Positions 5,457 to 43,843 of a DNA stretch of 64,000 bases are shown here, piece by piece. The translations under genes were made by a program, and so were the position numbers. Each line of letters begins with the position of its first letter. Position 1 is the first letter of the stretch. Where the stretch lies: positions 125,839 through 189,838 of the forward strand of contig JAUQPL010000004.1 of NCBI GenBank assembly GCA_030550395.1, in the 5' to 3' direction. The stretch comes from Bacteroidota bacterium. GTDB lineage: Bacteria; Bacteroidota; Ignavibacteria; Kapaibacteriales; HRBIN21. Below the pieces are notes generated by a model. That model was not told the DNA's origin and searched no databases. It worked only from the letters and a program-made list of their open reading frames with translations.

Positions 5457-6172
5457 GGCAGGTCCCCTAATTGCGGTCGGAGCACCAGCTCTTCTGGTAG
5501 TAGGCGCGGCTGTGCCGTCAGGCGCAGCAGGGCACAAGCGGTTTCAGCGACATCCTCGGCTTGGAGCATCCGATGGCGCCAACGCCGACGGAGAGCTCCA
5601 TGCCAGACCGGGGTATCCGTTGCCCCAACGTGGAGATTGACGACTTTGATGCCCTGGGAGCGCAGCTCCTCGCGGAGAGCTCGGAGCATATGGGCAGCGG
5701 CAGCTTTCAGTCCACCGTAGATAGACGAGAAGGCAAACGCCTTCAGGGCAGCAACGGAGCTGATATAGAGAATGACCCCGGACTTCCGCTCTATCATGGC
5801 TGGCAGCACTGCGCGGAGGCAGAGGAAGAGGGAATACACGTTGGCTTGCAGGAGGGATTCAAATTCCGCCGGGGTTGTTTGGACAAAGGGTTTGAAGAGG
5901 GCGTTCCCGACGCAGTGGACGAGGGCATCAATGGTGCCGAAGCGGTGGAGGATTTCAGTGGAGACTTCTGCAACGGCCTCGGGGTCGGAGCAGTCACAGG
6001 GAAGGGGATATATGTGGGGGATTGAGCCTGCTAATCGCCGCAGTAAGTGGGCGCGTCGGGCAGAAGCTACAACGGTATATCTTTCCTCTGCCAAGCGGCG
6101 GGCAATGGCAGCCCCGATCCCGCTGCTGGCGCCCGTGACCCAGACGATGCCGAGAGAAGGGGTATCTGCCAT
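5453..6172 (-). CDS. Short-chain dehydrogenase/reductase (SDR) family oxidoreductase
   Basis: Motifs TGASSGIGAAIA (TGxxxGxG), NAG and YxxxK are present. Confidence 0.8.
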   Translation of the reverse strand: MADTPSLGIVWVTGASSGIGAAIARRLAEERYTVVASARRAHLLRRLAGSIPHIYPLPCDCSDPEAVAEVSTEILHRFGTIDALVHCVGNALFKPFVQTTPAEFESLLQANVYSLFLCLRAVLPAMIERKSGVILYISSVAALKAFAFSSIYGGLKAAAAHMLRALREELRSQGIKVVNLHVGATDTPVWHGALRRRWRHRMLQAEDVAETACALLRLTAQPRLLPEELVLRPQLGDLP

Positions 6173-6175
6173 AAT

Positions 6176-8197
6176 CTACCCAGTGCCGAGCGAATTCTCT
6201 GTGACCAATACCCAATGTTCGGCGACGCTTTCGTCCAGCTCTGTGAGGAAGGGAGAGGGCTTTGCAAGAATCCAGCCACTCTCATGGTCAATGGCGCGAA
6301 GGGGATAGAGGAGGTAGAGGAAGCGCCGGGCGCGAGTGCAGGCAACATAGAAAAGACGCCGTTCTTCTTCGAAAGCTTCTACGGAGTCATACGCCCACGC
6401 CACAGGGAAGCGACCGTCGGTCATCCAGATGAGGAAGACGGCGGTCCACTCCAGCCCTTTGGCGGAATGAACGGTAGAGAGCGTCAGAGGAGATTCCTCC
6501 TGGCTCCCCGGGGCTGCTACATCTGCAACACTCTCGGTTGGGGGATCCAGAGTAAGGTCGGTTAGAAATTCCTGCAGGGTTTGGTAACGTTCGGCGAGGG
6601 CAAGCAGGGCCTCAATGTCCCTCCAGCGTTTGTGGTGGTCGTCGTACTGCCGTTGGAGGAGTGGACGGTAAAGAGTAGCGCATTGGCTGAGGAGTTCGGG
6701 CACAGGTGTATGGCGAAGGTAGAGGCGGAAAAGGGTACAAAGGGCCTCCCAAAGTTGGATGACGGTGGTTCGGATACTGGGGGAGATACCTAGCAGGAGA
6801 TTCTCTATGCTTTGGGGGTCTTCCCATCGCAGAATTCCTTCCCGGATGCCTTCAATGATGCGGTGTGCCGTACGAGGACCAACACCCTCCAGCATCAGAA
6901 GAACTCGGTGCCAACTGACGGTGTCGGTGATATTGAGAAGGATGCGGGCAAAGGCAAGGAGATCTTTGATGTGCGCTGTTTCTGTAAGCTTTAGTCCACC
7001 GAATTTGCGGTAAGGGATGCCCACCCGTGATAGCTCAATTTCCAGCTCAAAGAAGAGGTGGCTGGCACGTGCCAGAACGGCGATATCGGAAAGCGGGATG
7101 CCTTGCTCTCGCAGAGCCAACACTTGCTGCACGACAAACAGCGATTGTTGTCGTTCATCCTCAGCCCGAATGATAGCAGGGGAAGGTCCTTCCTTTTGGC
7201 GACTTTGGAGCTGTTTTCGGTAGCCATAGATTGCACGGCTGATGATGGCATTGGCGAGGTTCAAAATGGGCTGGGTGCTGCGGTAGTTTTCCTCCAGGGT
7301 GATGATGGTGCATTGTTGGAATGCGTTGGGGAAATCCATAATGTTGCGGAAATCTGCCCCACGAAAGGAGTAGATGCTTTGGGCATCATCACCGACGGCG
7401 AGGATATTTTCCTCCGGACCCGCCAAGAGCACGCTGATGCGGTGCTGCAAGGGATTGGTGTCCTGATACTCATCCACCATGACGTAGCGAAACTGAGCGT
7501 GGAGCTGTTGCCGCTTTTCGGGATGCTCTTCCAAGAGTTGGAGCAGGAGCAGGAGGAGGTCGTCGTAGTCCACAAGACCATGGCGACGTTTGTAGAGGCG
7601 GTAGGCGTCGTAGAGCTGCTTCAGTTCCGGGAGCAGGTGTTGGAAGTGGGGGTACTCGGCGGAGAGGATATCGTCAATGCTGCGGTTACGGTTGATTGCG
7701 GTGGAGTAAATGTCGGCAAGGGTCCGTTTGTGTGGGAAGCGTTCCCGGCGCCGTTCGCGGAAGAGTTCGGTGCGGAGGAGATTGAGCACATCTTCGGCAT
7801 CGGTTTGATCTAAGACGGTAAAATCCGGGGAGAGGCCGACGGCGTGACTGTAACGCCGGAGGATCATGTAGGCGAATGAATGGAATGTCCCGCCAGCAAC
7901 GCGCTCGCAGCGACCATCCAACAGCTGTGCTGCTCGGTGAAGCATTTGTCGGGCGGCTTTCCGTGTGAAAGTCAGTAGCAAGATATTCTCAGGGGGGACT
8001 CCGTCCTCCACCAAGCGAGCCACGCGGTAAGCAAGGGTCCGGGTCTTTCCCGTTCCAGCACCAGCAATGACCAGAGCGGCTCCGTTCTGGTGCATAACGG
8101 CTTGCAGCTGGGCAGGATTAAGCTCTTCCTCATACCGCAGGCGATATGTCCGGCGGGCAGGAATGATGCGGACTTGGATGCGCCGTTCGTGTGCCAT
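6176..8197 (-). CDS. UvrD/PcrA/Rep-family ATP-dependent DNA helicase
   Basis: Walker A (AGAGTGKTRTL) and UvrD helicase motifs (LLLTFTRKAA; VMVDEYQDTN). The start was refined to MAHERRIQ.. at 8197. Confidence 0.85.
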   Translation of the reverse strand: MAHERRIQVRIIPARRTYRLRYEEELNPAQLQAVMHQNGAALVIAGAGTGKTRTLAYRVARLVEDGVPPENILLLTFTRKAARQMLHRAAQLLDGRCERVAGGTFHSFAYMILRRYSHAVGLSPDFTVLDQTDAEDVLNLLRTELFRERRRERFPHKRTLADIYSTAINRNRSIDDILSAEYPHFQHLLPELKQLYDAYRLYKRRHGLVDYDDLLLLLLQLLEEHPEKRQQLHAQFRYVMVDEYQDTNPLQHRISVLLAGPEENILAVGDDAQSIYSFRGADFRNIMDFPNAFQQCTIITLEENYRSTQPILNLANAIISRAIYGYRKQLQSRQKEGPSPAIIRAEDERQQSLFVVQQVLALREQGIPLSDIAVLARASHLFFELEIELSRVGIPYRKFGGLKLTETAHIKDLLAFARILLNITDTVSWHRVLLMLEGVGPRTAHRIIEGIREGILRWEDPQSIENLLLGISPSIRTTVIQLWEALCTLFRLYLRHTPVPELLSQCATLYRPLLQRQYDDHHKRWRDIEALLALAERYQTLQEFLTDLTLDPPTESVADVAAPGSQEESPLTLSTVHSAKGLEWTAVFLIWMTDGRFPVAWAYDSVEAFEEERRLFYVACTRARRFLYLLYPLRAIDHESGWILAKPSPFLTELDESVAEHWVLVTENSLGTG

Positions 8198-10070: not shown

Positions 10071-11435
10071 CTATTGGCGGTAGTACCACAATTCCTCGGC
10101 ACGAAAGAGGCGTTCTCCGAAGCCCATGCCGATGCCAATGTACCACCCACTGAAGCGAGTTGCTTGCTGGAGAATGTCCCACCAGTCCCTGCCTCGGAGC
10201 GCCGAGCCGTTTGCGAAGCCAGCGGTGGCGAAGAGATTCATAGTGTTGCTCAAGCGGAGGATGAGGCGTCCCGACAGGTGGAGAGCGTTGGAAGGATAGT
10301 AGAACGCCTCAGCGCCAATGTCCCCGTAAAGCCCAGCAGGCACAAGCTCGTGCCAGTATCCGATGCGTAAGGGGAGCACACCGATTCCACCGGCATCTAA
10401 TCCCAACACAACGACGCTTGTCAGTGCCGTGCCGGCGTACAGTCCTGGTGGACCAACAGGGAGTGCCAGTTGGACAGGAAGGATACGTCCCACAAGTCCT
10501 GAGATGAGAGAGGAGGTAGCCCACACCGACCTTGCCACGGTGGTTTTCAAGGAAGCAAGCTGACCAAGACCAACGCTCCAGGCCGAATGCCGGTGTTGGC
10601 TCCACTCCTGTTGGAGCTCCTCCTCACGATTGAGGAAGTCGGCCAAGGAGACTCCAAGACCAAGGTACGGCTTCGCATAGCTCTGTGCCTGGAGATTCTG
10701 TGAATTTTCCGGAGTCTGTCCCCAGAGGAATCCCGCATAAGCTCGCAGATTAAGCCCACCGAGGGAACCGGCCTCTAGGGAGCCGAACAGATTCAGATAC
10801 TGCGACGGGAAAAGACTTGTCCCCACGCCGATAGTTGCCGCTACATACGGAGGAACATCCCGCATGTACCACCGTTTGCGGATATACAACGGAAGCAGTC
10901 CGGCAGCCCATTTTTCCTTATACTGGCTGAGAGCAAAGACCTCTAATCCAACACTACCGACGCTCCAATCCCGGGATTGGAAGAACCAGGGGAAATGGTA
11001 CTCCATGACGCCAAATCGGTACCAGGCGCCTGTGAAAAGAGCCGATGTCGGGTTTGTGTTGTTGGAGGCGTTCAGTAGCTCGGGGAAGAGCCCGAAAAGA
11101 CCCCATAAATGTCCCTCAGCGGTGCTTGAAACGCCAAGCAGCCCGACGCTTTCAAAGAGTCCTAGGCGAATGAAGTTGGGGTAGTAGCGTTCAACCACGC
11201 TATCGTAGAATGTAGCACCATACCGGAGCTCTTCCTTGCGAGCGTTGGGGAAAAGGACCCCGCGTGGAGTCTCTCCCGGAGGGTTATGGTAGTCGGTGTA
11301 CCAGGTGGTATCCCGCTGTAGAATTGTGTAGGTGTCCCGCTCTACGCGAGTCAATGGTGATTGCAGGATATCGGTAGCCGTTGCACATCCTCCGAGCACG
11401 TATAGTGGTAGAAGCCACCAAGGAAGTGCTTTCAT
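10071..11435 (-). CDS. Hypothetical outer-membrane lipoprotein (Gly/Tyr/Trp-rich, beta-rich)
   Basis: A signal peptide with lipobox (LGGCAT) and aromatic/Gly-rich composition; I recognise no family. Confidence 0.5.
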   Translation of the reverse strand: MKALPWWLLPLYVLGGCATATDILQSPLTRVERDTYTILQRDTTWYTDYHNPPGETPRGVLFPNARKEELRYGATFYDSVVERYYPNFIRLGLFESVGLLGVSSTAEGHLWGLFGLFPELLNASNNTNPTSALFTGAWYRFGVMEYHFPWFFQSRDWSVGSVGLEVFALSQYKEKWAAGLLPLYIRKRWYMRDVPPYVAATIGVGTSLFPSQYLNLFGSLEAGSLGGLNLRAYAGFLWGQTPENSQNLQAQSYAKPYLGLGVSLADFLNREEELQQEWSQHRHSAWSVGLGQLASLKTTVARSVWATSSLISGLVGRILPVQLALPVGPPGLYAGTALTSVVVLGLDAGGIGVLPLRIGYWHELVPAGLYGDIGAEAFYYPSNALHLSGRLILRLSNTMNLFATAGFANGSALRGRDWWDILQQATRFSGWYIGIGMGFGERLFRAEELWYYRQ

Positions 11436-11782
11436 GGCTGGAGCTCTAAGATTTCTGTGACTTCAACACACGCTCCGATGCCGCACAGCGGTGTGCAGTT
11501 GGGAAGGAGGAGAGCACGGACACGGGCGCGCACATTCTCCCGCTGGAGACGCTGCAGTATGTGTTCCTTCCCACGGAGTTCGTAGAAGGCTTTGTCCTTC
11601 ATAGTGCCGGTTTCCAAAATCCAGCACGTACTTCCGTCCATCCGTAAAGGGTTGATGACCCCGCTGAGCTCAATAACTGTCCCCTGGGGGCGAGGAGTCG
11701 CGCAGCCATAGAAGAGCAGGGCGCAGAGCAGGAGAGGAAAGGCATACTGTTTACTGCTGCATCGCCGCATGGGCATACTCAT
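11432..11782 (-). CDS. Small hypothetical lipoprotein
   Basis: A signal peptide with FYGC lipobox; 4-nt start/stop overlap with the downstream gene. Confidence 0.45.
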   Translation of the reverse strand: MSMPMRRCSSKQYAFPLLLCALLFYGCATPRPQGTVIELSGVINPLRMDGSTCWILETGTMKDKAFYELRGKEHILQRLQRENVRARVRALLLPNCTPLCGIGACVEVTEILELQP

Positions 11783-13130: not shown

Positions 13131-15575
13131 TTAGCTTGGGCTGCGTGGTACATTGCGGCGGCGTTTGTCGGATTCGGCGTAGTAGTGGTAGTACTTGTAG
13201 TACCGGTAGTAGCGGTAGTAGGAACCGTAGGTGGTGCTGATATCAAACTCATTCAACACAGCGCCAACGATGCGGGCGGAGACTCGCTCCAGGAGTTCTC
13301 GGGCTTTGATCAGAGCTTCTATGCGGGTTTCGTTCGCTCGGGCGACAAGTACGTACGCATGGGCGATGGGAGCCAAGACCAGGGCATCTATGACAGAAAT
13401 GACCGGAGGCGTGTCCAAGAACACGATGTCGTAGTTCTGCCGGAGCTGTTGGAGAAGCTGGCGGGCGCGGTCGGAACCCAGAAGTTCGGAGGGGTTCGGG
13501 GGAATAGGACCGCAGGTAAGGAGGTCCAGGTTGCGAATGCCCGTTGGGCGGCATGCATGATCGGGGGCCAGTTCCCCGATGAGGACGTTGACCAGTCCGG
13601 GTTCACGCCCGAAGCTGAAGACAGTATGGGTTGAGGGGCGGCGTAAGTCAGCATCGATGAGGAGGGTTCGGTAGCCCGCGTGGGCGAAAGTAATAGCGGT
13701 GTTGACCGTTGTGGTGGTTTTCCCTTCTTGTGGGACCGAGCTTGTGATGACTACCAATGGGTGTTCTATGTCGACGGTGGCAAACTGGAGGGCAGTGCGG
13801 ATTGAGCGATAGCTTTCGGCAATCGGTGACTTGGGGTTGCAGTGGGAGATGAGGTGAGGGGGGAGCGGGTGTTCGGCGGGGAAGCGGGTATAGAAGGCGG
13901 CGTCATCTCCGCTTTGGGCAATCATGGCAGCATCCCTGGCGGTCAAGTCAACGGGGATGCGGGGAATTGCCGCCAGCACGACCATCCCTGTGTTCTCTAC
14001 GTCTTCTGGGGAACGCACTGTGGTATCGGTCAGTGCCCGCAGCAGGACGAACCCAATGCCCAGGAGCAGCCCTACAATGGTTGCAATGCTTATGTTTAGC
14101 TTCCGGTTGGGGCTGACTGGGCGTGTGGGGGGCATAGCGCGTTCTAAAACTGAGACAGTGGCAAAGACGGATTGTTCGGCGATGATGGCTTCGTTGAGCT
14201 TCTCCGACAGTAAATCATGCAGTTTTTCCAGGCTTCCCGTCGTTCGTCGGAGGCGTGCCAGTTCGATGATTTGAGCAGGTAGGCGCTGGAATTCTTCATC
14301 GGCCCGCTTCCGAGCACTTTCAATAGCGGCCAGGCGAGCTTCTTCGGCTTGGAGCTGGACGCTGAGCTCGAAGACTTTCTGTCGGAGGTTCTGCAGGGCA
14401 GCTGTCGGTCCCCCGCCTTCGGGAGGGGGGGGGAGTGCTCCGAGCTTGGAACGCTTCAGCTCCTCGGTGCGTTGGCGTAGCTTCTCTTTCAGCTCCGTAA
14501 GCTGGGCTTCCACTTGCTCCATCTGGGTCTGGAAGTACACGGGGCTTGCCACCACTGGTTTGCTGGCAATAATGAGGTCCCGCTGGACTTCCAATTGCGC
14601 TATCTGTTGCTGCAGCGTCTCAATGTAAGGGGAGGATACAGTGGCAAGTTCTTCTGCCAGTGTAGGCTCTATTTCGCGGAGCTGCTGCTGGTACTGGTCC
14701 AATGTGCGCCTGAGAGCATCGCGGGCGATATGGGCTTCGCTGGCTTTACCGTCCAGCTCTGCCAGTTGGGTCACCAAGGCATTAGCACGGGCATCCAATT
14801 CCATGGAACCAGTGCGGCTCATGTAGTCCTGCAATGCCTGTTCCGCTTTCGCCAGTGTGTCTCGGGTCCATTCGTACTGCTGCTGCAGGAACTCCCGTAC
14901 TCGGCGGGCATTGGCACGGTTGTTCTGCTCATTCACTGCAAGGTACACTTCGGCGAAAGTATTGGCGATGAGGGCTGCTTCCTGAGGATCATTGGTTCGG
15001 ACCCGGATATCCACAATGTCGGCATCACGGTTCGGGATAAGGGTTAAAACGCTCCGCAAGCGTCCGGCTATGAAGGCAATGCTGTCTTCCTCTGTCTTTA
15101 AGGGAACTGCTTTTCCTTGGGTACTGCGGAGTAAGGGCAGTGAAACACCCGATCGGACTTTGCGGAGGAGGGCTCGGGCGACGGCGTCCATTGTTTCATG
15201 GGCATTCATCTGCATCAGCTCATTGCGCAGGACGCGGTCATCTTGCCCGTTGAGTCCTACCAGTACGATACCCGTGGGGGGACGGCTGGTGTTGACCAGC
15301 AAGCGGGCGGAGGCTTCGTATACAAATGGACGTGTCCACGTGTAGTAGAAGGCTGCTGCAACGATAGCGCCTGTGATTGCAAGGATCCACCACTTTCCCT
15401 GCCACAACAAGTGGAGGTAGTCAATGAAGGTAAAATGGCGCTGGAGAGCAACTGGAGGGAGTCCGTTTCGCGATGAGGTTGTTCGGGATGTTCGTGGAGT
15501 ACCTGCCATGGGTCCCCCTTGCACTGTGGGGTTGCGAGAGTCGGTGGGTCTCACCGATTGCCGAAAATACAACAT
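13131..15575 (-). CDS. Polysaccharide co-polymerase / BY-family tyrosine autokinase (Wzc-like)
   Basis: Two TM segments flank a long coiled-coil periplasmic domain. The C-terminal P-loop kinase has Walker A (SSVPQEGKTTTTVN) and a Tyr-cluster tail YYRYYRYYKYYHYY. The start is uncertain (15575 or 15509). Confidence 0.85.
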   Translation of the reverse strand: MLYFRQSVRPTDSRNPTVQGGPMAGTPRTSRTTSSRNGLPPVALQRHFTFIDYLHLLWQGKWWILAITGAIVAAAFYYTWTRPFVYEASARLLVNTSRPPTGIVLVGLNGQDDRVLRNELMQMNAHETMDAVARALLRKVRSGVSLPLLRSTQGKAVPLKTEEDSIAFIAGRLRSVLTLIPNRDADIVDIRVRTNDPQEAALIANTFAEVYLAVNEQNNRANARRVREFLQQQYEWTRDTLAKAEQALQDYMSRTGSMELDARANALVTQLAELDGKASEAHIARDALRRTLDQYQQQLREIEPTLAEELATVSSPYIETLQQQIAQLEVQRDLIIASKPVVASPVYFQTQMEQVEAQLTELKEKLRQRTEELKRSKLGALPPPPEGGGPTAALQNLRQKVFELSVQLQAEEARLAAIESARKRADEEFQRLPAQIIELARLRRTTGSLEKLHDLLSEKLNEAIIAEQSVFATVSVLERAMPPTRPVSPNRKLNISIATIVGLLLGIGFVLLRALTDTTVRSPEDVENTGMVVLAAIPRIPVDLTARDAAMIAQSGDDAAFYTRFPAEHPLPPHLISHCNPKSPIAESYRSIRTALQFATVDIEHPLVVITSSVPQEGKTTTTVNTAITFAHAGYRTLLIDADLRRPSTHTVFSFGREPGLVNVLIGELAPDHACRPTGIRNLDLLTCGPIPPNPSELLGSDRARQLLQQLRQNYDIVFLDTPPVISVIDALVLAPIAHAYVLVARANETRIEALIKARELLERVSARIVGAVLNEFDISTTYGSYYRYYRYYKYYHYYAESDKRRRNVPRSPS

Positions 15576-15642
15576 CGCCGCAAGACCATATGCACGAAGA
15601 CTATTGCTTTCTCGTTTGTGGAAGGCGCCGTGGGGAGAGGAA

Positions 15643-16749
15643 ATGGTATGGAGTTTTGTCCTGGCTGCCTTTATTCTGTGGGGATGTGCTGAGGACCCTG
15701 TGTATGAACTGGGGGAAGGCGGTGCGGGTTCGCTTGTGGTTAGCTCTACTTTGCTTGGAGGGACAGAAGGAGAGCCAGGAAGGGAGTATCAATTCACTGC
15801 CGTTCTCGAGCGGCGCCCGAGCTGGTTTCGGGTTGAATGGGATTTCGGTGACGGTTCACCGCGCAAGATCGTCATCGGGGAGCTTGCCGTACGACATCGC
15901 TTCCAAGGGGTAGGCACATACACAGTCGTTGCTCGGGTTTATGAGCATGGGACGGGAGTTCTTTGGGCGACGGGGGCGCTGGTTGCAAACATTCGCTTTA
16001 CGCCACCTCCGCCTGCAATGGTGACGGTTCCACCGGGTAGCTTCCGTATGGGATCAGACCGTGATTTCACAGAGCAACCAATCCGAACCGTCGTTCTGAC
16101 CCGTCCTATGATGGTCCTGCCGACGGAGGTAACGCAGGAGCTTTGGACGGCGGTGATGGGGTATAATCCCAGCTGGTTCCGTGGGGAAAAGCGCCCGGTG
16201 GAAAACATCACATGGTGGGAAGCCATAGATTTCTGCAATCGGCTCTCGGTGCGACACGGTTTCCGCCCGTGCTACCTTACCCGAGGGGATACAGTTTTCT
16301 GGGATCGGACGGCGAGCGGATATCGGCTCCCAACGGAAGCGGAATGGGAGTATGCCTGCCGGGCTGGTACGACCATGGATACCTATGCTGGTGATCTTCG
16401 CCAGCCATGGGGTGGGTGCGAAGAGGAATCCGTCTTGGTTCCTATTGCCTGGTACTGTTGGAATAGCGGTGATCACACTCATCCTGTCGGACTCAAACAG
16501 CCAAATGCGTTCGGGCTCTTTGATATGTTAGGCAACGTTGCTGAATGGGTATGGGATTGGTATAGCAGCACGGCATATCAGGATGCTGATACTTGCAATC
16601 CGGTAGGTCCACCTCTGGGTCAGCGGCGCACCGTGCGTGGGGGAGCGTGGAGTATGGGCTGTTTCCTCCTGCGGGCTTCGGCTCGTGTGGGGATGTCTCC
16701 ATGGCACCATAGTCCGGCTGTTGGCTTCCGAATTGTGCGGATGCCATGA
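15643..16749 (+). CDS. Lipoprotein with PKD domain and FGE-sulfatase (SUMF1/EgtB/PvdO) family domain
   Basis: Start MVWSFVLAAFILWGC follows GGAGAGG. A PKD hallmark (WDFGDGS) is followed by an FGE-sulfatase domain (PGSFRMGS...RGGAWS...GFRIVR). There is only one Cys in the C-terminal region, so it is probably not a true formylglycine generator. Confidence 0.75.
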   Translation: MVWSFVLAAFILWGCAEDPVYELGEGGAGSLVVSSTLLGGTEGEPGREYQFTAVLERRPSWFRVEWDFGDGSPRKIVIGELAVRHRFQGVGTYTVVARVYEHGTGVLWATGALVANIRFTPPPPAMVTVPPGSFRMGSDRDFTEQPIRTVVLTRPMMVLPTEVTQELWTAVMGYNPSWFRGEKRPVENITWWEAIDFCNRLSVRHGFRPCYLTRGDTVFWDRTASGYRLPTEAEWEYACRAGTTMDTYAGDLRQPWGGCEEESVLVPIAWYCWNSGDHTHPVGLKQPNAFGLFDMLGNVAEWVWDWYSSTAYQDADTCNPVGPPLGQRRTVRGGAWSMGCFLLRASARVGMSPWHHSPAVGFRIVRMP

Positions 16750-18095
16750 AGTGGAGCTCCTTCCTTTGGTTGTTGAGCAGTATCTTCCTCTGGGGTGGGT
16801 GTGCGGGGGAGACAGCAGTGCATACCCCTCCGGAGCGTTCGGGAAGGAGCGATACTGCGGCAGTACTTCGTCGGATTGTGGTAGGAGCGGAGCAGTGTCA
16901 GCCTTGCCACCCAAAGCACGTTGAGGAATGGCGGATGTCCCTGCATTCCTATGCAATGGAGGACCCTGTCTTCCATGCCCTTCAGGCGCTTATGCTCCAA
17001 GCACAACCAGTCATTGATGACCAGTTCTGTGTGCGTTGCCACACACCGTTTGGTTCCCTCTTCGGTGAAGCTTTGCCCGGTGCCCGCAAAGAGGAGCTGT
17101 CTCCTTTGGCACGGCAGGGGATTACGTGCGATGTATGCCACCTTATGGCGTTTCCGCAGCCGGCGGGGCGGGGCGTGACGCGCTTTCGGCTAGATGGAGC
17201 ACGCATAGGGAATGTCCCCAATCCTCTCCCGAACCCTTTCCATTCTTCTGTGTACGAGCCTCAATTATCGCAATCGGAAGCCTGTGCTCCATGCCATGAT
17301 GTCGTTAATCCACTCGGAGTCCTTGTGGAGCGGACTTACACAGAATGGCGGGAAAGCCTCTATCCCGGGCGGGGCATCACATGTCAGGTTTGCCATATGC
17401 CGTGGGTTTCGGAACCGATTGTTCCGGATGGGCCTGTCCGCCGCCGGCATAATCATATGATGCCTGGGGTGGATGTACCACTGTCGGATTTCCCTGGGCG
17501 GGAGCAGATAATTGCAGCAGTAGAATACCTGCTCCAGAATGCTCTCCGCATGCTTGTTAGCGTACCTTCGGAACTTTCGCGTCAGAGTCCTCTGACTGTT
17601 CGGGTAGTGTTGGCAAATAATATCACTGGCCATGATATCCCGACCGGTTCTATCTTCACCCGTCAGATGTGGCTTGAGGTCATCGTCCGGGAACTTCCCT
17701 CAGGACGCGTCGTATTTGAGACAGGGACTTTGGATGCTGGTGGTGACCTGCGTACCCTTCATAGCATGGAGGTACAGGCAGGACGTATTCCGCTGGATAC
17801 GGCGCTTGTCCTCTTCAATGGGACAGCACTCCGCAATGGGAGACCTGCTTTCTTCTGGGAGGCGCATGCAGTGGAGTTCCGTACTATCCCTGCCTTTGAT
17901 AGCCGTACAGCTCTCTATACGATTTCTGCACCACCGGGTGGATGGAGTGGCACAGAGTTGGAGGTGTCCGTTCGCTTGCGCTTCCGTGCGTTACCGCCCT
18001 ATCTCCTCCGAGCCTTGGGATTGGAGGAGTTTGTTGAGAGGCTCCCCATTTTTGACATGGAGCGCTTTCAGCATCGGGTGGTGCTCCGCCCATAG
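16746..18095 (+). CDS. Pentaheme c-type cytochrome lipoprotein
   Basis: Five CxxCH motifs (CQPCH, CVRCH, CDVCH, CAPCH, CQVCH) in the N-terminal half and a signal peptide MKWSSFLWLLSSIFLWGGC. Its ATG overlaps the upstream stop (ATGA). Confidence 0.75.
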   Translation: MKWSSFLWLLSSIFLWGGCAGETAVHTPPERSGRSDTAAVLRRIVVGAEQCQPCHPKHVEEWRMSLHSYAMEDPVFHALQALMLQAQPVIDDQFCVRCHTPFGSLFGEALPGARKEELSPLARQGITCDVCHLMAFPQPAGRGVTRFRLDGARIGNVPNPLPNPFHSSVYEPQLSQSEACAPCHDVVNPLGVLVERTYTEWRESLYPGRGITCQVCHMPWVSEPIVPDGPVRRRHNHMMPGVDVPLSDFPGREQIIAAVEYLLQNALRMLVSVPSELSRQSPLTVRVVLANNITGHDIPTGSIFTRQMWLEVIVRELPSGRVVFETGTLDAGGDLRTLHSMEVQAGRIPLDTALVLFNGTALRNGRPAFFWEAHAVEFRTIPAFDSRTALYTISAPPGGWSGTELEVSVRLRFRALPPYLLRALGLEEFVERLPIFDMERFQHRVVLRP

Positions 18096-18200
18096 GGTGT
18101 GCTAAAGCTTTGGGGCAAAAAGCGTAATTTGCATTGCTTTTCCATAGCCGATTTCGACAGAACGCAGTGTATGTCTCACGATGAGGGATAGACAGACTGC

Positions 18201-20105
18201 ATGACAAGTTCGACGGGTGCTCCAGCAATGGGGGCGTATCAGCGCCAGCGGCTCCTAGAAGAGTTGTGGCAGGGGACGAAGGCACCACCGGCGGTAGACG
18301 ATGAACAATTAGCGCGGCTTTATGAGGCAACGATATCGCGGCTGCGAGAAGGGGAGGTTGTCAAAGGACGTATCGTTAGTGTCGGTAAGAACGAGGTCCT
18401 GGTCGATATCGGAGCGAAGTCTTTAGGAGTTGTGCCGCGACGGGAGTTTGTAACTGACCCAAAAGTAGGGGAGGAGATAGAGGTCTTCGTGGAGAAGGCT
18501 GAAGATAAGGAAGGACGAGCCGTGCTCTCCCGACGTCGGGCAGAGCTTTTGCAGCTGTGGCAGCGCGTTCAGGAGATTTACCAGAAGCAGGAGACGGTAT
18601 CGGTGACCATTGCCCGGCGGGTCAAGGGGGGCTTTGTGGTAGATCTGATGGGTATGGAGGCATTTTTGCCAGGCTCGCAAGTAGATATCCGCCCTGTTCG
18701 TGATTTCGATGCATGGCTGGGGCGTACCATTGAGGTGCGGATTGTCAAGCTGAATCAGCCGGGGGAGAATGTTGTTGTAAGCCGGAAGGTACTCTTGGAG
18801 GATCAAATTGCTGAGCAACGCCAGCGCATTTTGAGCCAGCTGGAACGCGGTTTGGTTTTGGAAGGAACGGTCAAGGCGATCACGGATTTCGGGGTCTTTG
18901 TGGATTTAGGTGGTGTGGACGGCTTGGTGCATATTACGGATCTCTCCTGGGGGCGTGTCAATCATCCAAGTGAGATTGTCTCGCTGGATCAGACCGTCAA
19001 GGTTGTAGTACTGGACTTTGACGAGGAGAAGAAGCGTATTTCGCTGGGCATTAAGCAATTGACCCCTCACCCGTGGGATACCATCGGGGATAAGTATCAG
19101 CCTGGCACGATCGTGCGTGGGAAGGTGGTCAGCATTACCGATTACGGGGCTTTCGTTGAGATTGAAAAGGGCATTGAGGGGCTGATCCACATCAGCGAGA
19201 TGTCATGGACCCAGCACATTAAGCATCCATCCCAGGTTCTCTCGCTGGGTCAAATGGTGGAGGCAATGGTATTGAGCATTGACAAGCAGGAGCGTAAGCT
19301 GGCTTTAGGACTCAAGCAGTTGCAACCGGATCCGTGGCAAGAGTTGGTGAAGAAGTATCCGATTGGTTCTCGGCACAAGGGGGTTGTGCGTAATATCACA
19401 AACTTTGGGGTCTTTGTGGAGCTTGAGCCGGGTGTGGAAGGGTTGGTGCATGTTAGCGACCTGTCGTGGACGAAGAAGGTGCGGCATCCTGGTGAATTAG
19501 TCCGTCGCGGGCAAGAGCTGGAGGTGGTTGTGTTGGACGTTGATCCGGAGCATCGTCGCATTGCGTTAGGACATAAGCAGCTACAGCCCGATCCGTGGGA
19601 CTTCTTCGCTGAGAAGTACAAGGTGGGGGCAGAAACCGAGGGGCGCATTGTGCGGATTGTGGAACGGGGGGTTGTTGTAGAGCTGCCGGATGGCGTGGAT
19701 GGGTTTGTCCCGGCGTCGCAGCTCTCGTTTGCTCCTGTTTCCTCCGTTGCTGATTACTTCCAAGTTGGGGACCTACTCCCCTTGAAGGTTGTTGAGTTTG
19801 ACCGGGAGGCACGAAAAATCGTGCTATCTGCCGTGGAGTACCTCCGGGATAAGGACCGCTCTGTCATTGACGCTTACAATGCGCAACATCCAGTACCCGG
19901 CGCGGAGAAATACGCTTTCATCGTTTCGGGTAGCGCTCCGGAAGCCGGGGTGGAAGGACCGAAGGAAGTGGCTTCGGATGCGGAAGCAAAGTCTAGGAAG
20001 GCGAGAGCCACAGCCCGACGTCGGGCGGTAGCATCGGGAGCCTCCGATTCAGAGGGTACATCAGCAGAGCCAGAGGCATCTGCTCCGGGTACTCCGTCAT
20101 CGTAA
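18201..20105 (+). CDS. rpsA: 30S ribosomal protein S1 (long form with disordered Ala/Ser/Glu-rich C-terminal tail)
   Basis: Six S1 domains (repeated G..V.G.V..I.D.GAFV/FGVFV motifs). Confidence 0.9.
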   Translation: MTSSTGAPAMGAYQRQRLLEELWQGTKAPPAVDDEQLARLYEATISRLREGEVVKGRIVSVGKNEVLVDIGAKSLGVVPRREFVTDPKVGEEIEVFVEKAEDKEGRAVLSRRRAELLQLWQRVQEIYQKQETVSVTIARRVKGGFVVDLMGMEAFLPGSQVDIRPVRDFDAWLGRTIEVRIVKLNQPGENVVVSRKVLLEDQIAEQRQRILSQLERGLVLEGTVKAITDFGVFVDLGGVDGLVHITDLSWGRVNHPSEIVSLDQTVKVVVLDFDEEKKRISLGIKQLTPHPWDTIGDKYQPGTIVRGKVVSITDYGAFVEIEKGIEGLIHISEMSWTQHIKHPSQVLSLGQMVEAMVLSIDKQERKLALGLKQLQPDPWQELVKKYPIGSRHKGVVRNITNFGVFVELEPGVEGLVHVSDLSWTKKVRHPGELVRRGQELEVVVLDVDPEHRRIALGHKQLQPDPWDFFAEKYKVGAETEGRIVRIVERGVVVELPDGVDGFVPASQLSFAPVSSVADYFQVGDLLPLKVVEFDREARKIVLSAVEYLRDKDRSVIDAYNAQHPVPGAEKYAFIVSGSAPEAGVEGPKEVASDAEAKSRKARATARRRAVASGASDSEGTSAEPEASAPGTPSS

Positions 20106-20107
20106 TT

Positions 20108-21688
20108 TCAGTAACCTAATCGGAGTTCCAAAAGAAGCCATACCTGGCGGAGCGGGTTGTTCCCACCAGTGCGATTGCTGTAATCCAAGGTCAGGAAGCT
20201 CATAACATTGGGGAGCCACTCTGCTTCCAGTTGAAGGCGGAGGTGGCGCTGTATGCTCCGACGTCCCCGGAGGAAGCGATTGGGAGCGAGCATGTCACCA
20301 TCCCCACGGAGGATATCCCCTCCGACGTTGCCGATGGGGATAATGGTTCCATTGCGCTCTTCGGTCAAGAGCTTCCCATCGGGACCGAGCAGATTTTCCC
20401 CATGCCGAGTGTAGTCTGCACTAAGGGTAAGGGCAATCCGTGGGGCAAGCCAGTACCGGAGCTGCAGTGCCCAACGGTCGCTGTTCGGCTGCATTGGGTA
20501 ACCCAAGGGGGTATTGAGGTGAGTCCATGAATTGACAATTGTGCGGTGGGAGAAAACAAAAGGACCCAACCGAACATACTCGGCCGTGAGCTGGAGTCCA
20601 TCACCGATGGGGATCAACCCGGTTGCGCCGAGCTGGAAGGCAAATTTGTTCGTGTTGCCCGCAACAGTGGTGTCGAAGAGCGTTGAGTAGTTGAGGTCGT
20701 CGACGGCCAGCGTTCCATATAGTAGCAGTCCCCGCTGGGGGCGTAGGGCTATCTCTACTGCCAAGAGCGAATTGTCCGTGTTGCTCCGTTCAGCTGTCTG
20801 CAGCCCAGCGGAAACAAAGAAGGCAAGGGGATTCAGGTAACTGAAGTCCAGTCCGCGACCGGAGTAGACAATCATGTCATAGAGTGCCACGGCAAATCCA
20901 GCAGATGGTTCCCAACCGAGGCGATGGAGGGCGATAAATTTAGAGGAGACGGGCACGTTTGCCGTATCTGTTCCCTCGGCTGCGGCATGGAGGTAGGTGA
21001 AGCGGAATGCCTTATGGGGAAGGTCCACCAATAGAGCGTCCATCATCGGGGCTTGGAGGGAGAGCAATAGGTTGTCAATGGGACTATAGCCAAAGGTGAG
21101 CGCCTCTCGTCCAAAGCGGAGTCGTGCCTGATTCCACCGAAGCTGGAGGTACCCTGCGTAGCGGTCGAAGTAGCGTCGTGCTTCAATAGACAGCTTCAGG
21201 GTTCGCCCTAAGCTTGGGTCAGTCTGAATAGCGGCTTCTGGAGTTCCGGCAAACCGGATTCCGTTGGAAATATCAACGAAGCCTTCAATGGAGGCGCCGT
21301 AGCGGAACAGAGCTTGGAAGCCGAGGCGCCCCAAAAGGAGGGTGGAGCTGGTATCCCTGGAGCGGAGATACCCGCTCCGATTCATAAGGCTCCCGTTTAC
21401 GATGAGTCGGAAGAGAGTGTCGGCGCTGGACAAAAGGAATCGGTACCTTCCGAAGCGGGGGAAAAGGGAAGTTCCGCTGTCCGGCGCCAGAAAAGGGGGC
21501 GCGGTGGGAGGGTGCTCTTCTGGTGGGAGGACAGCTGGAAGTTCTGCAAGGGGGATTGGCCAGAGTACGTACCGTTGGAGCGAGACGGTGTCTGCTGTCA
21601 AGATGTGACGTAAGGCACGCTGGCGGGTCCATGGGTCAGAGAGCGGGTCAACATTTTGAGCTGTTGCGACGTATACCAAAAGAGGCAT
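20108..21688 (-). CDS. Hypothetical outer-membrane beta-barrel protein (possibly capsule-assembly Wzi-like)
   Basis: A signal peptide, alternating aromatic/Gly beta-strand-like composition and a C-terminal aromatic residue. The Wzi assignment is an inference from EPS-locus context only. Confidence 0.4.
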   Translation of the reverse strand: MPLLVYVATAQNVDPLSDPWTRQRALRHILTADTVSLQRYVLWPIPLAELPAVLPPEEHPPTAPPFLAPDSGTSLFPRFGRYRFLLSSADTLFRLIVNGSLMNRSGYLRSRDTSSTLLLGRLGFQALFRYGASIEGFVDISNGIRFAGTPEAAIQTDPSLGRTLKLSIEARRYFDRYAGYLQLRWNQARLRFGREALTFGYSPIDNLLLSLQAPMMDALLVDLPHKAFRFTYLHAAAEGTDTANVPVSSKFIALHRLGWEPSAGFAVALYDMIVYSGRGLDFSYLNPLAFFVSAGLQTAERSNTDNSLLAVEIALRPQRGLLLYGTLAVDDLNYSTLFDTTVAGNTNKFAFQLGATGLIPIGDGLQLTAEYVRLGPFVFSHRTIVNSWTHLNTPLGYPMQPNSDRWALQLRYWLAPRIALTLSADYTRHGENLLGPDGKLLTEERNGTIIPIGNVGGDILRGDGDMLAPNRFLRGRRSIQRHLRLQLEAEWLPNVMSFLTLDYSNRTGGNNPLRQVWLLLELRLGY

Positions 21689-21714
21689 TCCCCACCACAG
21701 TTGGATGGATTGCC

Positions 21715-22758
21715 TTACCATTCCAAAAGGGGGGCGGCGGGGCATGTGACATACTCGCTCGGCAGAGCAACACTCTGTCCGCCATTTGCCAACGAGAGTT
21801 GGGCCGCTTCTAAGAGAGCAACGACGGCTCGTCCGAAGAATCCGTCGCTGATAGGACGTTGTCCTGTTCGAATGCAGGTGATGAAATGCTGAACAACTCG
21901 GCTGAGGGCTTCTTGATTCGGCAAGGGGGGTGCGTACATTTGTCCTGCGCGATATTGCACACGGAGCTTTTCTTCTCCCTCTTTGGAGGTGATCTCAACT
22001 CCGCGGTCGTAGACTCGCACCTTCTCGCTGGTTTCCATGTCGTCGTAGATGACCATTCGCCGGGAGCCGCCGATACAGATCGTTCGGAGCTTAACGGGGG
22101 AGAGCCAATTGACGTGGAAGTGTGCCAGGAAGGGCGTTTCGTAGTGGACGGTCACGTATGCAAGGTTTTCTAACTCGTAGTAGTGTCGGGCTCCTACAGC
22201 GGAGACGGCGACAGGGGCTGCTTCAATGAGATAGAGCAAAATCGCAGCATCGTGCGAGGCAAGGTCCCAGACGACATTGACGTCGGGCTGGAAAAGCCCC
22301 AGATTGGCTCGTACGGAGTCAAAGTACAACGGTTCCCCTAATTCACCGTAGACGAGAAGTTCCTTGAGCTTTTGCACTGCGTCGGTGAACAGGAAGGTAT
22401 GGTCAACCATTAAGATCCGTCCGGCGGACTCTGCCAGGGCGAGGAGCTCAGATGCTTCCATTGCGCGCCGGGTGAGGGGTTTCTCTACCAAGACGTGTTT
22501 TCCCCGTTTCAGGGCGCAGGAAGCTAGCTCGTAGTGGAGGGCCACCGGGGTTGCGATGGCGATGGCATTGATGGCTGGATCGTTGAGCACAGTGGAGGGG
22601 CTAGAGGTTGTCCGCACCCAGCGGAAGCGCTGTCGAACAGCCTCCAGACGGGTTTCGTCTGGATCGCATGCAATTACGGCTTCTACCTCAGGATTCTGCA
22701 GGAAATTTCGGATAAGGTTCGGTCCCCAGTATCCACATCCGAGAACAGCAACAACCAT
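21715..22758 (-). CDS. Gfo/Idh/MocA family NAD(P)-dependent oxidoreductase (sugar dehydrogenase-like)
   Basis: An N-terminal Rossmann fold (VAVLGCGYWGPNLIRNF), EKP motif and family architecture. The start was refined to MVVAVLG, 2 nt after the upstream stop. Confidence 0.8.
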   Translation of the reverse strand: MVVAVLGCGYWGPNLIRNFLQNPEVEAVIACDPDETRLEAVRQRFRWVRTTSSPSTVLNDPAINAIAIATPVALHYELASCALKRGKHVLVEKPLTRRAMEASELLALAESAGRILMVDHTFLFTDAVQKLKELLVYGELGEPLYFDSVRANLGLFQPDVNVVWDLASHDAAILLYLIEAAPVAVSAVGARHYYELENLAYVTVHYETPFLAHFHVNWLSPVKLRTICIGGSRRMVIYDDMETSEKVRVYDRGVEITSKEGEEKLRVQYRAGQMYAPPLPNQEALSRVVQHFITCIRTGQRPISDGFFGRAVVALLEAAQLSLANGGQSVALPSEYVTCPAAPLLEW

Positions 22759-22760
22759 GG

Positions 22761-24269
22761 TTACCGGTTCTGTCCACGCAGCATGTACGGTATGGTCTTC
22801 AGGAGGACGTAGAGGTCTAACCAAGGAGAGACGTTCCGAACGTAGTAAATGTCCAGAAGCAGCATTTGAGCGAACGTATGGGAGCGATCCGAGATTTGCC
22901 ATAGCCCTGTGCAGCCAGGAGCGATTTGATGGCGCCACCGTTGCCACTCAGGGAAGTGGTCTGCTTCTTCAGGTAGGAGCGGGCGCGGTCCTACCAGGCT
23001 CATTTCTCCTTTCAAGACATTCCAGAGTTGCGGGAGTTCATCCAGGCTCCATCGGCGGAGCCATCGTCCAATGCGTGTTAGGCGGCGCTGAGGGACAATC
23101 TTCCGCAGAGGTTTGTTGGTCGTGATATGCTCGCGAATGCTGGCCTTCCACTCGTGGTAGGCTTCGTCACCGGTGTGCATTGTGCGGAACTTGTACATCC
23201 AGAAACGCCTACCGTGACGTCCAATGCGCTGCTGCCGGTGTAAGACGGGTCCTGGCGAGTCTAACTTGATAGCAATGGCAATTGCAACAAAGAAGGGGAC
23301 AAGCAGCAGGAGGGATACCACTGCCAATATGAAATCCATCCCGCGTTTCAGGAACAGGAGCAGCTGGCGAGACTCTACCTCGGTGAGGCTAAGGAGCGGG
23401 ATTCCTCCGATGTCGTCCAACAGGCGTTCGGGAAGAAGAGTGGGGTAGAGTTCTGCTACAATGGAGACAGTTGCACCTGTCTGCGTCCATGCTCGGGCCG
23501 ATGTGAGTATTGCTTCTGGCGAAAGGGTGGGATCGGCATAGATGACGTGTTTGATGCCTGCCGTTGTAGTGGTCGGAGCCTGCCATGAGCCTAAGACCCG
23601 ATAACCGTTCAGTACTGGTGTTCCCATGGGGAGAGTGTCGGCAAGGAAGCCAATCAGTTTGCAGTCGTGTCCGTTATCGGCCAGGAGACGTTCGGCAACG
23701 TACTGTGCTAACGCTGTAGTTCCAGCAATGGCTGTTGGACGTTGGAAACGGTCGGTGCGGAGGAGGGAACGATGCAAGAAATAGAAGATGCCGAGGCGCC
23801 ATATACCCAGAAGGAATGTGCCTGCAACGAAGGTCGCTCCGGTAATGAGCCGGCTATCCAGCCAATGAGGCGGACGCAGGAAGAAGGAGATGACAGCGAA
23901 GCCGATGAGGGCATAAAAAGTGGACCGTAGCAATAGGACTGTATGCCGGGGGAGCGAACGGAGTGAGCGCAGCTTGTACAAACCGTGGTGTTGCAGAATG
24001 AGAATCCATGCGATTCCGAATCCGGCGAAGGCAAGCCACGAACCCCACTGTTGCAGTACGATCCAAGCATCTGGACGCCCGAATCCATATGCCAATGCAG
24101 CGGTGGCGATTCCATAGCCCGATAGGACACAACAGTAATCGCCCGCAACCAGGAGCAGCTTGTAAGCAGGGTAACGTGGTAAAAGTCGCATGCTTTCCTC
24201 CCTTATTGGGTACCTAGCATTCGTTGCCGTACGATTTCCACGCTGCCCCCACCGCTCCCTGACACCCAA
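22761..24269 (-). CDS. Exopolysaccharide polyprenyl-phosphate sugar phosphotransferase (WbaP/CpsE-like 'sugar transferase')
   Basis: An N-terminal multi-TM region plus the C-terminal bacterial sugar transferase domain (..[17 protein letters not shown]). The start may be MRLLPRYP at 24191. Confidence 0.8.
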
Positions 24270-41365: not shown

Positions 41366-42034
41366 ATGCTGATGGATGCACAGCCATTACCCCTGTCGGC
41401 GACGGTTTTTCACTCTTTAAGTCGTCTAGCGTGGTGGACGGCGTTCTTCACCGTTGTCTATAACTTCTGTGAAGGGGTTTTTGCCCTATGGGCGGGGCAT
41501 ATTGGGAGCAGCTGGGGAGTGATCAGTTTTGGAATAGATGCCGTAGCAGAGTCACTCTCGGGAGGGGTAATCCTGTGGCGTTTTGCCCCCGGTATACGGG
41601 CAGACGAGCGCGAGCGCTTTGCCCAGAGAGAGCGGAGGGCGGTGGTTCTTATTGGACTGAGCTTCCTTGTCCTGAGTATGGTGGTTTTCGTTGAAGCCAT
41701 CCAACGCTTGCTGGGACATGTCCATGCTGAGGAGCACGGGCTGGCATTCATCGTAGCAGGGGTATCGCTCGTTGTGAAACCGCTCCTGTTCGGGATGAAA
41801 TGGTATCTGGGACAGCGCCTCCAGAGCGAGGCTCTACGTGCAGATGCCAAGCAGACATTGGCCTGTGCTGGCCTCTCTGCAGCGCTATTGCTTGGATTGG
41901 GAATGAATCAATGGTTTGGGGTATGGCAGGCAGATTCTGTGTTAGCTCTCCTCATCGCAGCAGTTTTGGTGCGGGAGGGGTTTCATGCTCTCCGCCATCG
42001 CCATATCCTGTGCTGTCCAATTTCCCAGCGATGA
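41366..42034 (+). CDS. Cation-efflux (CDF)-like membrane protein, transmembrane domain only
   Basis: Six predicted TM helices with Asp/His-containing TM motifs resembling CDF; it lacks the usual C-terminal cytoplasmic domain (222 aa). Confidence 0.45.
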   Translation: MLMDAQPLPLSATVFHSLSRLAWWTAFFTVVYNFCEGVFALWAGHIGSSWGVISFGIDAVAESLSGGVILWRFAPGIRADERERFAQRERRAVVLIGLSFLVLSMVVFVEAIQRLLGHVHAEEHGLAFIVAGVSLVVKPLLFGMKWYLGQRLQSEALRADAKQTLACAGLSAALLLGLGMNQWFGVWQADSVLALLIAAVLVREGFHALRHRHILCCPISQR

Positions 42035-42041
42035 GGAAGCC

Positions 42042-43775
42042 ATGAAGAAAGGAGGATTTCTCTCTGTTCTGCTCTTACTTGCCCTCGGATGCGCACGGGA
42101 ACGCTCCACGGAGGAACTCCGCCCAGCAGCCGGCGGACGCTTTTATGGCGGGACTTACCGCGTCAACGAAGTTGGAGAAGTTCGCTCTTTGGACCCCGTC
42201 CAAATCAATGACGTCACTTCCGCTCACGTTGCAGAGCAGATTTACGACAAGCTTCTTACCCTTGACGAGCGGTTACAGCTTCAGCCGGAGTTGGCAGAGC
42301 GCTGGGAAGTTTCGCCCGATGGGCTGGTTTACCGATATATCTTACGGCGGGGGGTCTATTTCCACGATAATCCTTGCTTCCCCGGTGGCAGGGGACGGGA
42401 GCTTACGGCGGAGGATGTCAAGTACTCGCTCACCCGCGCGTGCGATTTCCGGACGGGTACGCTGGGATATGACTACTTCCGTGGCAAGGTCAAGGGGGCC
42501 GATATCTACTTTGAAGCTACCCGTCGGGCGGCTCAGTCGGGCAAATCCCCTGAAGTAACCGAAGTGTCGGGTTTTGTGGTCCGCGATCGCTATACGTTTG
42601 AAATTCACCTGACCCGTCCTTTCGCTCCGTTTGAGTATTATGTCTCGCTTGTCACCTTCGCCGTCGTCCCACGAGAAGCGGTGGAGTATTACGGGGCCGA
42701 CTTTTTCCGTAATCCAGTCGGCTCTGGTCCCTTTATCCTCGTCTCGTGGACACCTGATCGGGAGCTACGCTTACGGCGTAACCCGCGGTATTGGCAGCGC
42801 GATGAGTATGGGAATCCACTCCCATATCTGGAGGCGATTTCGTTCCGCTTCATCAAGGACGAGAAGACACAGCTTTTGGAGTTTCGCCAAGGGAATCTGG
42901 AGGAGTGCTATCGGATCCCGGCAGAGTTTTTTCCGCAAGTGGTGGATGAACACAAGCAGCTGCGGGGAGAGTGGCGCCGTTTCCAGCTGCTCCGAGTTCC
43001 GGCAGTGGCAACGCAGTATTATGGAATGCTGACCCAACATCCGGTCTTTCGTGACCGGAGGGTTCGGCAAGCATTTGCCTATGCTATAGATCGGGAGCGT
43101 ATTGTTCGCTATGTGCTCCGAGGGCAAGCGGGAGAACCTGGGCATTATGGGCTTGTGCCACCATCGCTACCGGGATATCCTGCACGGAGCATACGGGGAT
43201 ACCGGTTTGATCCTGAGCGAGCACGGCGCTTATTAGCCGAGGCCGGGTATCCAGACGGGCGGGGATTCCCACGGATTACACTGCAACTCAACGCCGGTGG
43301 TGGACGCAACGTGCAGGTTGCCGAAGCTGTGCAGGCAATGCTGCGGGAGCATTTGGGCATAGAGGTAGAACTGCGCCAAGTAGAGTTTGCGCAGCATTTG
43401 CGGGAAATTGATGCAGGGCGTGTGCCCTTCTTCCGCTTGGGTTGGGTGGCTGATTACCCGGAGCCGGAAAACTTCCTCAACCTCTTCTACGGGAAGTTCG
43501 TGCCGGATAGGGAAGGCGATATCAGCCCAATCAACTCGACGCGCTACCGCAATCCTGCCTTTGATGCAGTGTTTGAGCAAGCACTGGTCACAACGGATCG
43601 GCAACGCCGGATGGAGCTCTATCGACAGGCAGAGCAGATTGCTATGGATGACGCGCCCATGATCATCCTTTTCTACGACGAAGATTACCGCCTACTGCAG
43701 CCTTATGTTGCCGGCTATCGGAACAATGCCATGGATCGGCGCTGGTACAAATACGTCTGGCTGCGCTCCCGCTGA
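42042..43775 (+). CDS. ABC transporter substrate-binding protein, family 5 (peptide/nickel/opine type) lipoprotein
   Basis: SBP_bac_5 architecture; the start was refined to MKKGGFLSVLLLLALGC (lipobox). Confidence 0.75.
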   Translation: MKKGGFLSVLLLLALGCARERSTEELRPAAGGRFYGGTYRVNEVGEVRSLDPVQINDVTSAHVAEQIYDKLLTLDERLQLQPELAERWEVSPDGLVYRYILRRGVYFHDNPCFPGGRGRELTAEDVKYSLTRACDFRTGTLGYDYFRGKVKGADIYFEATRRAAQSGKSPEVTEVSGFVVRDRYTFEIHLTRPFAPFEYYVSLVTFAVVPREAVEYYGADFFRNPVGSGPFILVSWTPDRELRLRRNPRYWQRDEYGNPLPYLEAISFRFIKDEKTQLLEFRQGNLEECYRIPAEFFPQVVDEHKQLRGEWRRFQLLRVPAVATQYYGMLTQHPVFRDRRVRQAFAYAIDRERIVRYVLRGQAGEPGHYGLVPPSLPGYPARSIRGYRFDPERARRLLAEAGYPDGRGFPRITLQLNAGGGRNVQVAEAVQAMLREHLGIEVELRQVEFAQHLREIDAGRVPFFRLGWVADYPEPENFLNLFYGKFVPDREGDISPINSTRYRNPAFDAVFEQALVTTDRQRRMELYRQAEQIAMDDAPMIILFYDEDYRLLQPYVAGYRNNAMDRRWYKYVWLRSR

Positions 43776-43843
43776 GGATAGTAGGCAGCGTATGTTTGGG
43801 AAATTTTGTTTTTTGCAATCCCGGCTGTGTGCATTGGCGGCGG

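Follow-up and report, generated by a model that had tools for sequence, protein, structure and literature searches.

Overlapping genes for a pentahaem cytochrome c lipoprotein and a non-catalytic lipoprotein of the formylglycine-generating-enzyme fold in a Kapabacteria lineage

A 64,000-nucleotide (nt) stretch of DNA from a Bacteroidota bacterium of the order Kapaibacteriales (assembly GCA_030550395.1, contig JAUQPL010000004.1, positions 125,839 to 189,838; hereafter the window, whose own numbering is used throughout) contains a two-gene operon encoding two lipid-anchored envelope proteins. The product of the second gene, B, is a pentahaem c-type cytochrome composed of an alpha-helical haem cap and an immunoglobulin (Ig)-like stem, the same fold as the low-potential cytochrome c552 (LPC) of Thermochromatium tepidum. 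The product of the first gene, A, combines a PKD domain with a domain of the formylglycine-generating enzyme (FGE) fold that is of the non-catalytic, TvpA-like C-type-lectin kind. Because their pairing is kept in one bacterial lineage, A and B probably act together outside the cytoplasm. Within such an arrangement B would most likely serve in electron transfer or storage in the envelope rather than as an enzyme of the MccSep type, and A may be a ligand-binding or targeting partner that positions or delivers the cytochrome at a periplasmic or cell-surface ligand. Both folds are already known; what is new is a pentahaem branch free of Cys and selenocysteine (Sec) at the relevant positions and its pairing with an FGE-fold lipoprotein, neither of which was described in the literature searched (formylglycine or FGE-sulfatase with penta- or multiheme, and Kapabacteria with multiheme).

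The general architecture of the pair had been anticipated by the original prediction, made from the sequence of the window alone, and its descriptive part holds. The Pfam matches to PKD and PF03781 confirm a lipoprotein with PKD and FGE-sulfatase domains, exactly the five predicted haem motifs (CQPCH, CVRCH, CDVCH, CAPCH and CQVCH) are present in the second lipoprotein, whose lipobox reads LWGG-C19, and the ATGA overlap of the two genes is found in the sequence where it had been placed. The start of A was set at the ATG at 15643 because the longer open reading frame (ORF) from 15424 would run into a divergent wzc-like gene and the N-termini of the orthologues agree with 15643. The same 4-nt overlap of A and B is seen in three further loci (L001, L004 and L087), and overlapping stop and start codons of this kind would lead to coupled synthesis of the two proteins in roughly equimolar amounts. 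A scan of 15300-18350 for sigma-70 promoters and terminators returned nothing above shuffle expectation.

The assignment of B rests on its conserved residues and on the match of both its halves to solved structures. It matches the Pfam family Cytochrome_C554 (E 2e-8), and conservation was read from 77 aligned homologues, in which all five CXXCH motifs are invariant, so that the motifs are not a product of chance. The family has six further near-invariant histidines (H58, H67, H166, H235, H237 and H296), and D73, E195, E200, M218, R306, Q307, W309 and R414 are likewise invariant or nearly so; no conserved Cys was found in these homologues outside the haem motifs and the lipobox. The six extra histidines outnumber the five haems, which suggests bis-His ligation throughout and a role in electron transfer. 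The C-terminal half, which the original prediction had left unassigned, corresponds to the Ig-like stem known from the pentahaem c552/MccSep fold: an AlphaFold2 model places strands over residues 268-448 at predicted local distance difference test (pLDDT) values of 92-99, and a profile built from 24 homologues matches T. tepidum LPC (PDB 5ZE8) at E 5e-32 across both halves. B thus has five CXXCH motifs in an N-terminal helical domain, a C-terminal Ig-like beta-sandwich and the overall fold that mark the 5ZE8-like PHC/c552 proteins. The likeness is one of fold, with only 22% identity to 5ZE8; unlike the lipoprotein B, LPC is soluble and comes from a purple sulfur bacterium, and the Cys of the LPC segment PLCQ aligns at E195 of B, where the B family has no Cys. 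This family is large, with 1,914 cluster representatives (50% identity) matching at E 1e-30 or better, and has no experimentally studied member; the nearest named relatives come from metagenome-assembled genomes of Candidatus Kapabacteria (74-80% identity), and the only relatives characterised so far are the cytochrome of the purple bacterium, to which no role has been assigned, and MccSep, a selenoenzyme described recently. No other multihaem ORF occurs among the window ORFs of at least 100 aa.

The comparison with MccSep is informative for the possible chemistry of B. MccSep is a multihaem selenoprotein polysulfide reductase of Geobacter sulfurreducens (GSU2937-2936, PDB 9WT8) whose active site consists of haem 2 with a distal Cys239 and of Sec325 on the GHSIPDGU loop of the Ig-like domain (bioRxiv 10.1101/2025.11.18.688581). 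B is distantly related to MccSep/ExtKL: the 24-homologue profile matches 9WT8/9 at E 3e-11, the match to the NCBIfam ExtKL model NF040886 is weak (37.9 bits against a cutoff of 250), and MccSep and B have in common five CXXCH motifs, the haem cap and Ig-like stem, and a G-H-x-x-P-x-G loop reaching toward haem 2. In this loop G295, H296, P299 and G301, and beyond it R306 and W309, are invariant among the homologues. The position of Sec325, however, is S302 in B and T, A, S or V in the homologues, and that of C239 aligns to V194/E195, with V, I, A or L at position 194 beside the invariant E195; none of the 77 homologues has Cys or Sec at either equivalent. As the Sec and Cys positions are not conserved, the selenium/sulfur mechanism of MccSep cannot apply to B, and its identification as an MccSep-type polysulfide reductase was rejected. 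In a pentahaem cytochrome (PHC) family put forward from cable bacteria and Geobacter, ExtKL, Gsu2801 and the sPHC and lPHC proteins relate to T. tepidum c552 and all consist of a pentahaem domain and an Ig-like domain (PMC11976967). B falls under the same structural family concept, although that work concerns proteins of Desulfobacterota and truncated-haemoglobin fusions, and the lipoprotein subfamily of the Fibrobacteres-Chlorobi-Bacteroidetes (FCB) group and its FGE-fold partner are absent from it.

For A, the AlphaFold2 model shows beta strands over residues 29-117 (pLDDT >90), and the best solved relative by sequence is TvpA of Treponema denticola (PDB 2Y3C, E 2e-44), far ahead of true FGEs (E ~1e-15) and also of PorK and PvdO. 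By structure, A lies nearer to TvpA, PvdO, PorK and pFGE than to true FGE. The FGE/SUMF1 enzymes bind Cu(I) through a catalytic Cys pair, C336/C341 in the human protein. A has the FGE-sulfatase fold of PF03781 and lacks this pair: aligned by HMMER to Streptomyces FGE, A has a 3-residue deletion that removes the first catalytic Cys, and the second is matched by C340 in the segment SMGC, a position occupied by N, S, A or another residue across 17 orthologues. It follows that the A family lacks any FGE-type Cys and that A does not belong to the formylglycine-generating enzymes; its identification as a true FGE was rejected. The original prediction had leaned to this view from the single Cys in the region, and the case is stronger than was claimed, as the lone Cys is itself not conserved. 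It had also reported no sulfatase nearby, and a regular-expression scan accordingly found no C/S-x-P-x-R signature in window ORFs of at least 100 aa, a weak test because a sulfatase gene may lie elsewhere in the genome; ten window ORFs scanned with Pfam, among them the flanking genes except rpsA, proved to be exopolysaccharide, housekeeping and other non-sulfatase genes. Where it had proposed a protein like NirV, EgtB or PvdO, the nearest relative is TvpA, followed by PvdO and PorK, and not NirV or EgtB.

Assignment of A to the named families of this fold was considered and rejected on model scores, which for GldK/PorK (TIGR03525) were 86.8 bits against a cutoff of 350, for PvdO (NF051459) 69.2 bits against 500, and for the NCBIfam models of EgtB and SenA far under the cutoffs; PvdO serves in pyoverdine maturation and PorK/GldK is a ring lipoprotein of the type IX secretion system (T9SS), and neither pyoverdine genes nor T9SS ring genes adjoin A. 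Across the A orthologues, invariance falls on the generic fold motifs LPTEAEWEY, GNV.EW, RGG and GFR, and the conserved residues yielded no candidate for a catalytic or metal site. The segment from RGG to GFR, where the ligand-binding surface of TvpA lies, ranks with the most variable parts of the orthologues. A shares with TvpA the FGE-subtype C-type-lectin fold but, unlike it, carries a PKD domain at its N-terminus and has a cytochrome partner. Since TvpA is targeted by a diversity-generating retroelement, A was considered as a variable protein of such an element, a reading that was rejected: a blastn comparison of its 3' region (16301-16760) with the window gave only 32-nt chance matches and no template repeat, although no search aimed at a reverse-transcriptase gene was made, and hypervariability is absent from close orthologues. 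In a search with a distant FGE domain, the FGE-sulfatase fold was found commonly fused to kinases, caspases, TIR and NACHT domains, a pattern typical of a sensor or binding module.

The association of the two genes was followed by a genome scan with a 10-sequence alignment and one genome per species, which yielded 79 cytochrome loci. An A orthologue lies directly upstream of B in 13 of these (L001-L004, L021, L024, L027, L030, L033, L042, L047, L060 and L078), with a 4-nt overlap or a gap of at most 7 nt wherever the starts are unambiguous. The 13 loci adjoin one another in a neighbour-joining tree, their cytochromes are 42-77% identical to that of the window, and they form one clade of Kapabacteria/Ignavibacteria. 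The flanking genes, wzc-like upstream and rpsA downstream, are common only to the closest relatives and are wholly different in the other subgroups, and two more metagenomic contigs carry the pair, each again with other flanks. The junction of A and B is thus the sole element conserved across at least seven otherwise unrelated gene contexts, and its retention while all flanks change argues for selection on the pairing. The same FGE-cytochrome order also occurs within a single metagenomic ORF of 1412 aa (P0214, L089:4639-8877), which joins an FGE-like domain, also lacking the Cys pair, to the cytochrome, a beta-helix and a dockerin. The proposal that the pair represents an extracytoplasmic redox module is supported in part, by the adjacency across these contexts in one clade and by one fusion; the pair is not a general module.

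Elsewhere in the family the cytochrome keeps other company. In Calditrichota, KSB1 and Marinimicrobia it belongs to another conserved trio (L014, L016, L019, L036, L063, L065 and about 25 more loci, with the cytochrome at ~6001-7300 in each), in which a PSCyt1 monohaem and beta-propeller protein is encoded upstream and an FG-GAP/VCBS protein of ~700 aa with a T9SS C-terminal sorting domain downstream; one protein (P0241) fuses FG-GAP and cytochrome. Myxococcota encode a small, ~155-aa PSCyt1 cytochrome that overlaps the pentahaem cytochrome at its upstream end. Fusions of the cytochrome were found with FG-GAP, CBM2, beta-helix plus dockerin, DPBB plus SPOR, DUF2330 and PSCyt1, and the fusion proteins P0214, P0199, P0202, P0195, P0293 and P0333 represent FGE-like/beta-helix/dockerin, NosD-like beta-helix plus dockerin, CBM2, DPBB plus SPOR, and DUF2330 arrangements. 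The partners that recur are either modules for binding or anchoring outside the cytoplasm or c-type cytochromes of small size. As to A, one orthologue (P0098, L081) is followed by a beta-helix protein, and two others (P0097 and P0106; L084:634-3888 and L088:572-2182) lie directly downstream of a DUF1501 gene, itself preceded in L084 by a DUF1800 gene, with no cytochrome nearby.

The explanation we favour, tentatively and at slightly less than even confidence, is that B transfers electrons in the envelope as a cytochrome whose binding partner can be exchanged, A being that partner in this lineage; elsewhere CBM2, FG-GAP, beta-helix/dockerin or SPOR modules, fused to the cytochrome or encoded beside it, may take the place of A. 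A number of observations weigh against this explanation. As many as 66 of the 79 cytochrome loci have no adjoining A gene, and in sister Kapabacteria clades the cytochrome is solitary amid housekeeping genes such as MutS or EF-G-like; A orthologues also occur ~10 kb from a cytochrome, on another contig of a cytochrome-bearing genome, or beside DUF1800-DUF1501 or beta-helix genes. Comparison of the A-linked-clade cytochromes within the 77 homologues gave no clade-specific conserved residues that would mark a docking surface, and the 120 best matches of the P0214 search, which FGE-domain proteins dominated, included no second FGE-cytochrome fusion. Any physical or redox partnership between the two proteins is one that we infer, the proposed haem ligation is derived from alignments rather than from coordinates, and the invariant E195, E200, R306, Q307 and R414, together with the GHxxPxG loop, lie at the domain interface and may form a catalytic pocket. 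The dispersal of most relatives of either gene away from the other and the lack of clade-specific adaptation in the cytochrome would fit two co-transcribed envelope lipoproteins that share an operon in one lineage without any functional link. We consider this improbable, as adjacency by overlap or within 7 nt survives the change of flanks in at least seven contexts down to 42% identity, and an independent fusion, P0214, has the same domain order.

The interface residues raise the different prospect that B itself reduces or oxidises a small inorganic substrate, with a pocket between haem cap and Ig-like stem at the location of the MccSep site and with other chemistry, so that A would assist in substrate capture or assembly or be irrelevant. 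The GH-x-x-P-x-G loop, homologous to that bearing the catalytic Sec in MccSep, is invariant across phyla at 28-77% identity along with R306, Q307, W309, E195, E200 and R414, and the frequent encoding of the cytochrome alone implies a function independent of A; yet a Cys or Sec nucleophile is absent, the six conserved histidines suffice for five bis-His haems, and the loci have no recurrent neighbours specific to a substrate, such as transporters or maturases, and we regard such an enzyme as unlikely. Catalysis might instead reside in A, which would be a periplasmic oxidoreductase like PvdO (named dihydropyoverdine dehydrogenase by NCBI), which likewise has the FGE fold and lacks the Cys pair, and B would then be its dedicated electron acceptor or donor, wiring substrate oxidation into the respiratory chain through its five haems. 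This has a poor prospect given a PvdO model score of 69 bits against 500, invariant residues that amount to fold motifs without a catalytic or metal site, a variable RGG-GFR segment, and a nearest relative, TvpA, that is non-enzymatic. That A is a true FGE maturing a sulfatase encoded elsewhere is hardly credible: the strong PF03781 match and the database name 'formylglycine-generating enzyme' borne by its homologues speak for it, against the deletion of the first Cys of the Cu-binding pair, the variability of the second, the absence of a sulfatase signature from the window ORFs of at least 100 aa, and the closer structural kinship to TvpA, PvdO, PorK and pFGE.

The coordinates of the features of both genes are collected in Table 1.

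Table 1. Features of genes A and B, in window coordinates.
Feature	Position	Strand	Evidence or remark
Gene A, 368-aa lipoprotein with PKD domain and non-catalytic FGE-fold (C-type-lectin-like) domain	15643..16749	+	
A signal peptide and lipobox MVWSFVLAAFILWG-C15 (ILWG-C15)	15643..15687	+	C15 invariant in 21 orthologues
A PKD/Ig-like domain, aa 42-99, with WDFGDGS	15766..15939	+	PF00801, E 3.8e-8; PF18911, E 3.9e-6
A FGE-sulfatase-fold domain, aa 124-366, without FGE Cys pair	16012..16740	+	PF03781, E 6e-44
ATGA, B start codon overlapping A stop codon	16746..16749	+	Read from sequence
Gene B, 449-aa pentahaem c-type cytochrome lipoprotein, LPC c552/PHC fold	16746..18095	+	
B haem 1, CQPCH, C51-H55	16896..16910	+	In 76/76 homologues covering the position (77 aligned)
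B haem 2, CVRCH, C95-H99; equivalent of MccSep catalytic haem	17028..17042	+	
B haem 3, CDVCH, C128-H132	17127..17141	+	
B haem 4, CAPCH, C180-H184	17283..17297	+	
B haem 5, CQVCH, C213-H217, followed by invariant M218	17382..17396	+	
B C-terminal Ig-like beta-sandwich 'stem', ~aa 250-449	17493..18092	+	AlphaFold2 strands; alignment to 5ZE8 Ig-like domain
B loop G295-H296-D-I-P-T-G-S302, homologous to MccSep GHSIPDG-U325 active-site loop	17628..17651	+	HMMER alignment to 9WT8

Within the window, the block formed by A, B and rpsA lies inside a set of exopolysaccharide/capsule genes on the minus strand (13131-15575, 20108-21745, 21715-22947 and 22761-24269) comprising a Wzc-like chain-length/tyrosine-kinase protein, a Wzi-like protein, a GFO/IDH/MocA oxidoreductase and an initiating sugar transferase. 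Only the closest relatives (L001, L002, L004 and L078) retain this gene order, and a general link of A and B to the flanking Wzc, Wzi and sugar transferase genes was rejected for that reason. Another overlapping pair of ORFs, lipoprotein-like and 454 and 116 aa long (10071-11435 and 11432-11782, both minus strand), has L-x-G-C lipoboxes, no Pfam match, and 55-69% identity to counterparts in the closest Kapabacteria relatives. Unrelated to A and B are two tandem family-5 extracellular solute-binding proteins of peptide or nickel type, followed by an NlpC/P60 peptidase (41985-45532 and 45560-46414, plus strand).

With A the set of non-catalytic FGE-fold proteins, already growing, gains a member, and the automatic annotation of such genes as 'formylglycine-generating enzyme' or 'SUMF1/EgtB/PvdO nonheme iron enzyme' should be treated with caution. 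A bolder and rather unlikely extension is that A is the recognition subunit of a new, widespread class of pentahaem cytochromes free of Cys and Sec, which with its CBM2, FG-GAP, beta-helix/dockerin and SPOR versions would make up a modular cell-surface electron-transfer system; if this is true, a common haem core would be aimed at different extracellular ligands, such as polysaccharide, cell wall or mineral, by interchangeable modules. The branch to which B belongs retains the MccSep active-site loop without its Cys/Sec chemistry and recurs beside, or fused to, modules of the binding type, and these features offer a concrete starting point for testing what it does in uncultured Kapabacteria, Ignavibacteria, Calditrichota, Marinimicrobia and Myxococcota.

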